The translations under genes were made by a program, and so were the position numbers. Shown here piece after piece: positions 1 through 506 of a stretch of DNA of 506 nt. The notes beneath the pieces were generated by a model. The model was given only the letters and a program-made list of their open reading frames with translations. It ran no database searches and was not told where the DNA came from. How positions within the stretch are numbered: the first letter of the stretch is position 1; each line of letters starts with the position of its first letter. This DNA is from Escherichia coli (GTDB lineage: Bacteria; Pseudomonadota; Gammaproteobacteria; Enterobacterales; Enterobacteriaceae): NCBI RefSeq assembly GCF_003334335.1, contig NZ_QOWQ01000179.1; one strand, given 5' to 3'.

Positions 1-506
1 CTGAGCTCGGTTTCAAGCGCCAGCATGGCTGCATGCGCCCGGTCTTCCTGGCGCTCACCGGCAGACACCTTCACACCGGACGGCTTTTTCTGCGTCGACT
101 CATAATCCTTTTTTGCCGACGCCATCAGCGTGTTGTAATCCGCCTGCAGGATTTTCCCGTCTTTCAGGGCCTTATTCAGCTCTTCCTGCCGGGCGGTATA
201 TTTCTCCAGTGGCGTCAGCAGGCGCTCATACGCCTTCTGCGCCTCTCCGGTATACTTCAGCTGTGACGACTCACGCTCAGCCCTGTCCCTTGCCGCCAGT
301 TCACCGGCTTTTTCCATATCCGACTGCAGCGTTGCCGCTGCCAGACCCAGACGGGCATTTTCCCGGTCATCCCATGCGCCCTGAAGGTTGGCCCGGAAAG
401 AGGAGGTTTTACCGCGGCGCTGGCTCCGGCTCTGGTACCACTGCCATTTTTTATCCGCCTCATCAAATGCCTTCTGCGCACTGGCGAGCATATCCGCTGA
501 GGATTC
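1..506 (-). CDS. H: Phage tail tape measure (tail length determination) protein, lambda gpH family; internal fragment, truncated at both window edges
   Basis: Seen directly: the minus-strand frame with first complete codon at 506..504 has no stop codon over 168 codons (506..3; bases 2..1 are a partial codon). Translation: ESSADMLASAQKAFDEADKKWQWYQSRSQRRGKTSSFRANLQGAWDDRENARLGLAAATLQSDMEKAGELAARDRAERESSQLKYTGEAQKAYERLLTPLEKYTARQEELNKALKDGKILQADYNTLMASAKKDYESTQKKPSGVKVSAGERQEDRAHAAMLALETEL. The two ORFs in the supplied track are shorter and lie in other frames. Composition is rich in A/E/K/Q/L/R, as expected for a helical tape measure protein, and GC is about 58.7% (297/506 by hand count). From memory, not a search: the stretch LKYTGEAQKAYERLLTPLEKYTARQEELNKALKDGKILQADYNTLMASAKKDYE closely matches the central region of phage lambda gpH, and the upstream WDDRE motif aligns at the same spacing (39 residues) as in lambda. 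The gene symbol H is the lambda name for this family; this is a homolog, not lambda H itself. Confidence 0.9.

Follow-up and report, generated by a model that had tools for sequence, protein, structure and literature searches.

A two-residue gap relative to lambda gpH in the tape measure gene of Escherichia coli prophages, most likely a derived linker deletion

The window analysed here, a 506-nucleotide stretch of Escherichia coli DNA, is filled on its minus strand by a single open frame of 168 codons without a stop. This is the only long reading frame present; a plus-strand or non-coding reading was dropped because the plus-strand frames are all short and antisense and no Rfam family was matched. 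At 100% identity, the DNA matches a stretch of a chromosomal tape measure protein (TMP) gene of E. coli 2015C-3121 (WP_032308824.1, 857 aa, labelled 'phage tail tape measure protein' in RefSeq), of which the window encodes residues 319-486; gene H of Escherichia phage PhiR5_1 likewise agrees with window bases 3-506 at 100% identity. Some form of homologue of the window is present in 2,631 of 5,426 complete E. coli genomes.

The window translation aligns by BLASTP with lambda gpH 319-482 (58% identity, E=1e-55) and matches PHROG 24, the tail length tape measure protein family (E=3.9e-33). Over its full length, the source protein (residues 1-857) matches lambda gpH 1-853 (PDB 8IYK/8IYL/8K35, chain 8iyk_H etc.) with E=0, and it carries Pfam TMP_2 (PF06791, residues 54-256, 8.1e-70) and Tape_meas_lam_C (PF09718, residues 631-705, 1.1e-21), both of them outside the segment covered by the window. 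In the RefSeq annotation of 2015C-3121 the gene order is major tail protein, gpG, T, TMP, minor tail proteins, L, C40 peptidase (K), I and J, so that the TMP follows the G/T chaperones and precedes M, L, K, I and J, as in PhiR5_1 and in lambda (V, G, T, H, M, L, K, I, J). Lambda gpH (853 aa) thus resembles the source TMP in full-length homology, Pfam domains and gene order. Because of the full-length gpH match, the two Pfam domains and the PHROG 24 match, assignment of the source gene to the lambda gpH family is secure, and by homology to lambda gpH its product would set how long the tail tube becomes and be cleaved to gpH*. The features discussed below are collected in Table 1.

Table 1. Features of the 506-nucleotide window, with coordinates in window positions
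Feature	Position	Strand	Remarks
Internal fragment of lambda-family TMP gene	3..506	minus	TMP 319-486; aligns with lambda gpH 319-482
AGERQED motif	42..62	minus	Conserved, directly after the loop; 54 diverse TMP relatives
Peptide QKKPSGVKVSAG	57..92	minus	Segment singled out by the first-pass annotation
Predicted non-helical loop QKKPSGVKVS	63..92	minus	TMP 457-466; AlphaFold2 model residues 78-87
Indel junction, codons P-S-G (CCG TCC GGT)	75..83	minus	DNA and protein alignments
Conserved block SQLKYTGEAQ...KKP	81..266	minus	82-95% nucleotide identity with lambda; includes the TPLEKYTARQEELNKALKDGKILQADYN unit
Repeat-like unit TPLEKYTARQEELNKALKDGKILQADYN	132..215	minus
Mosaic cassette	264..506	minus	TMP residues 319-399; strongly diverged from lambda

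Translated from J02459 10542-13103, lambda gpH reads ...KKDYEATLKKPKQSSVKVSAGDRQED... at the site of interest. BLASTP and MAFFT agree on a single two-residue gap after KKP, in which QKKP-SG-VKVSAG of the window is aligned against LKKP-KQSS-VKVSAG of lambda gpH and the absent residues are lambda K455-Q456. Because both flanks, KKP and VKVSAG, match exactly, the placement of the gap is unambiguous at the residue level. In the DNA, lambda CCG AAA CAG TCC AGC GTG corresponds to CCG TCC GGT GTG in the window: a clean, in-frame 6-bp gap that can be placed as AAACAG or as GAAACA, an ambiguity of one base, with lambda AAACAG (K455-Q456) falling between window positions 80 and 81. A search for direct repeats or microhomology beside the absent 6 bp, such as slippage would leave, gave nothing beyond that single-base ambiguity, and a repeat scan of the window returned nothing relevant to the indel. 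The gap is the outcome of a sequence comparison and is not a statistical signal. It agrees with the first-pass annotation, which had noted as possible that the window lacks two lambda residues between KKP and VKVSAG: the lambda sequence given there is correct against the J02459 translation, and the difference is real in BLASTP, MAFFT and DNA alignments alike, none of which yields an ungapped match. That annotation placed the peptide at positions 72-92, which do encode QKKPSGV; the full peptide extends further, to the span given in Table 1.

Identity between the source gene and lambda H is mosaic, at roughly 30-97% across 90-nt windows. Residues 81-168 of the window translation are highly similar to lambda gpH 396-482, and the cassette upstream of them, which replaces lambda gpH 319-395, retains ~25-58% nucleotide identity with lambda (60-column windows of the pairwise alignment). 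Compared with its lambda counterpart, the cassette has 6 additional residues, whose exact placement within it is uncertain. With +6 in the cassette and -2 in the linker, the net length difference from lambda is +4 and not -2, both for the window and for the complete protein (857 versus 853 aa). The cassette is common to O18, O157 and ECA64 prophages at 92-100% and occurs at 70-83% in otherwise lambda-like TMPs (UID240, IGC). Its pattern is that of typical lambdoid module exchange within one gene.

Two ways of tying the linker gap to this mosaicism were considered and rejected. The first, that the loss of two residues compensates for the six gained in the cassette, fails because linker lengths and cassette types occur in all combinations: fragment P0024 has a lambda-type cassette with KKPSA, fragment P0025 a lambda-type cassette with KKPKSSG, and the window the long cassette with KKPSG. 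The O157:H7-type TMP of FRIK2069 (WP_000082473.1, 859 aa) shares the upstream cassette type of the window and ~92% nucleotide identity across it, but has the long linker KKPKSSGVKVSAG (CCG AAG TCG TCA GGA), two residues longer than the window's allele. The second, that the indel marks a recombination breakpoint, fails because there is none at this position in the closer relatives (O18, O157). Identity to lambda does fall from ~0.93 to ~0.75 just downstream of the indel site, a drop for which the gene's overall mosaicism accounts.

Our initial homologue search gave only fragments of <300 aa, and full-length genes were therefore taken from annotated genomes. The nine full-length genes compared encode TMPs of 851, 853, 857, 859 or 877 aa. 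In an alignment of eight of them, indels are confined to four sites; the ninth (strain 504239) departs from the lambda length at the linker only. The largest natural length differences in the set are insertions in the E. coli ECA64 TMP (L005 1514-4147; 877 aa), which has an 11-residue N-terminal insertion, with its first ~40 residues diverged, and a 7-residue insertion (KLLADAQ) after ...AVLHE.

Linker length is also variable on a broader scale. The short allele of the window occurs in ~500 of 5,426 complete E. coli genomes; a 108-nt probe spanning the site recovered 502 E. coli records at an identity of at least 95%, and every sampled match at an identity of at least 96% had a span equal to the query length. 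Long alleles (KKPKQSG, KKPKQSS, KKPKSSG) are commoner, the lambda-like 114-nt form being found in ~3,548 records. E. coli prophage fragments include alleles in which 2 or 4 residues separate KKP from VKVSAG, and protein fragments show two further short forms, KKPSA and KKPKG, the latter with ~64 records in complete genomes. In representatives clustered at 50% identity, the stretch that begins at the KKD preceding the conserved Tyr and ends at the acidic residue following AG[DE]R is 19 to 32 residues long (24 in the window), and the motif there is a K/P-rich 'YKDPKTPK...' spacer whose length varies.

Confirmation of the KKPKG allele came from strain 504239, whose genome is complete and whose TMP (WP_000840263.1, 851 aa) is intact and 96% identical to lambda gpH. 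Its sole gap against gpH is Q456-S457 (CCG AAA [CAG TCC] GGC), giving KKPK--GVKVSAG. Like the window's source protein it is two residues short in the linker, but its gap lies one codon off and it carries the lambda-type cassette. By its one-codon offset and its lambda-type background, the gap in 504239 is a different 6-bp event, independent of that in the window, and the four-codon linker has therefore been shortened independently at least twice. Fragments from error-prone records need confirmation (e.g., P0017, from the ECZU34 draft). In ECZU34 (BNGB01000004.1; L010 2016-4545) the TMP gene is called as at least five small pieces and the adjoining tail genes are fragmented too, which looks like indel-rich assembly errors.

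Because 5-6 residues separate KK from the V of VKVSAG in fragments from Citrobacter, Enterobacter, Klebsiella and Salmonella, against 3 (PSG) in the window, the short form is most likely a derived 6-bp in-frame deletion, a call of direction made by parsimony on a handful of outgroup fragments. More distant representatives mostly have longer K/P-rich linkers as well. The opposite polarity, with a short ancestral linker into which two codons were inserted in lambda and the other long alleles, would accommodate the existence of three distinct short forms (KKPSG, KKPSA, KKPKG) and the fact that no direct repeat, and no microhomology of more than one base, borders the 6 bp as the trace of a deletion by slippage. 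Against it, long forms dominate in E. coli (~3,548 lambda-like records versus ~500 + 64 short), every enterobacterial outgroup fragment that covers the site has the 5-6 residues, and the background of the KKPKG allele is 96% identical to lambda, for which recent loss is the simplest reading. We consider the opposite polarity unlikely.

The structural setting of the gap was addressed with an AlphaFold2 monomer model of TMP 380-560, built from a 54-sequence alignment (mean pLDDT 75, moderate). In this model the central region is largely alpha-helical, its helices broken by short loops, and the indel falls in one of these loops, flanked by predicted helices at TMP 439-456 and 467-491. Since virion gpH is an oligomer, the loop should be read as a monomer prediction. 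The block of model residues 81-90 has a pLDDT of 60, the lowest in the model. Among 54 diverse TMP relatives there is almost no variation at the Gly of VKVSAG (TMP G468), directly behind the loop, or in the [DE]R..D/E next to it, in contrast to the variable linker that precedes them. The indel is therefore predicted to sit in a flexible, low-complexity linker beside a conserved element, and such flexibility would explain the tolerance of length change. Solved structures contain no model of the indel region: PDB entries include gpH as a complete sequence but model residues 818-849 only, and the remaining oligomer in the tail lumen is unresolved (PMC10721106, PMC12617516). An AlphaFold3 hexamer model puts gpH segment 320-691 in a trans-envelope channel (PMC12617516).

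Tape measure proteins act as rulers for the tail, and the loss of two residues can be set against the scale of that ruler. The lambda tube consists of 32 gpV hexamer rings, each with an axial rise of ~42 A (~4.2 nm) (PMC10721106). With the ruler ratio of ~0.15 nm per residue as quoted in two papers (PMC1796659, PMC5099701, both citing Katsura & Hendrix 1984), one gpV ring corresponds to ~28 residues; two residues then amount to ~0.3 nm, the net +4 of the source protein to ~0.6 nm, and even the 877-aa allele of ECA64 lies within roughly one ring of lambda. The conversion assumes a helical ruler and is not strictly applicable at the indel, because the indel lies in a predicted loop. Because the tube grows by whole rings and the missing residues lie in a loop and not in a helix, we would not expect the two-residue gap to change tail length at the quoted ratio. 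The first-pass annotation had proposed both that small in-frame indels in tape measure proteins translate into small tail-length changes and that this spot tolerates length variation. The first proposal finds no support at this scale: ~0.3 nm is set against a ring of ~4.2 nm, the protein as a whole is longer than that of lambda, and the indel is in a predicted loop. The second is borne out by the further two-codon gap in strain 504239, the alleles with two or four residues, the 19-32-residue spacer and the AlphaFold2 loop.

Engineered TMP deletions, as described for lambda H (Katsura & Hendrix 1984, Katsura 1987), TM4 gp17 and TP901-1, are likewise in-frame length changes. By contrast with the variant in the window, which involves 2 residues and falls well below one ring, the reported engineered deletions remove 29-347 residues (TP901-1) or 114 (TM4), with shifts of many nm in the tail. 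The natural lambda-type TMPs of E. coli compared here differ by small numbers of residues, chiefly at a handful of loop or cassette positions, and all stay within about one ring's worth of residues.

Taken together, these observations lead us to put a probability of about 0.88 on the reading that the window is a piece of a lambdoid TMP in which a derived, neutral or nearly neutral deletion of K455-Q456 lies in a flexible loop and leaves tail length and function unaffected. The window would then be an internal piece of a lambda gene H homologue from a lambdoid E. coli prophage or phage, lacking the codons for lambda K455-Q456 in a short Lys/Pro/Ser/Gly-rich linker that is predicted to connect two helical segments in the central region of the protein. 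The 6-bp deletion, having little or no effect on fitness, would have spread with its mosaic tail module among E. coli prophages; the removal of two residues from a flexible loop would leave the number of gpV rings, and with it tail length, unchanged, and tape measure function would be undisturbed.

Recurrence at one spot could, however, reflect selection and not just tolerance. The linker might act as a hinge or register-setter between gpH* helices, whether in the lumen of the tail or the trans-envelope channel, with two-residue changes favoured by selection, for instance for their fit to a partner protein or cassette. A single four-codon linker struck independently at least twice, the nearly invariant AG[DE]R..D (G468) right after it and its location within the segment 320-691 of the modelled channel (PMC12617516) speak for such tuning. 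Linker length nevertheless reassorts freely with the upstream cassette and with the downstream sequence type, spacer length varies widely across the family, and the predicted loop is of low confidence and low complexity; we regard functional tuning, including selection to match a partner or cassette, as very improbable. If it were true, a selected linker hotspot would bear on the packing of the hexameric tape measure in the tube or on the trans-envelope DNA channel. That the gap is a sequencing, assembly or alignment artefact deserves almost no weight, even though some related records are error-prone (the fragmented ECZU34 draft gene, a 1-nt frameshift in PhiR5_1 gene H), and is refuted by the identical in-frame 6-bp gap in hundreds of independent complete genomes and several phage isolates, a reading frame intact across 857 codons and an unambiguous alignment with identical flanking residues.

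On the preferred reading of a near-neutral loop deletion, the short allele is ordinary, widespread allelic variation in a well-known protein. The gap matters little in itself; the analysis identifies the window as belonging to a common tape measure allele of prophages and marks the linker as, at most, a safe place for small indels in gpH engineering.

Three side observations can be added. The repeat-like unit TPLEKYTARQEELNKALKDGKILQADYN resembles a motif, TP.E.Y......LN..L..G.I....YNRA, that is present in 4-7 tandem copies in some distant TMPs (e.g., P0202, P0200). The window also aligns weakly to a second stretch of lambda gpH (401-526, E=1e-6), which hints at a possible old internal duplication. 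Finally, in gene H of PhiR5_1 (PV340545.1, L002 ~5280) a 1-nt gap against the intact prophage gene splits the annotation into two CDSs of 778 aa and 79 aa. The gap lies beside a G-rich run (GGGGA-CGGGGG) near the C-terminal GGFTGTGGKYEP region and may be either a sequencing error or a genuine frameshift.
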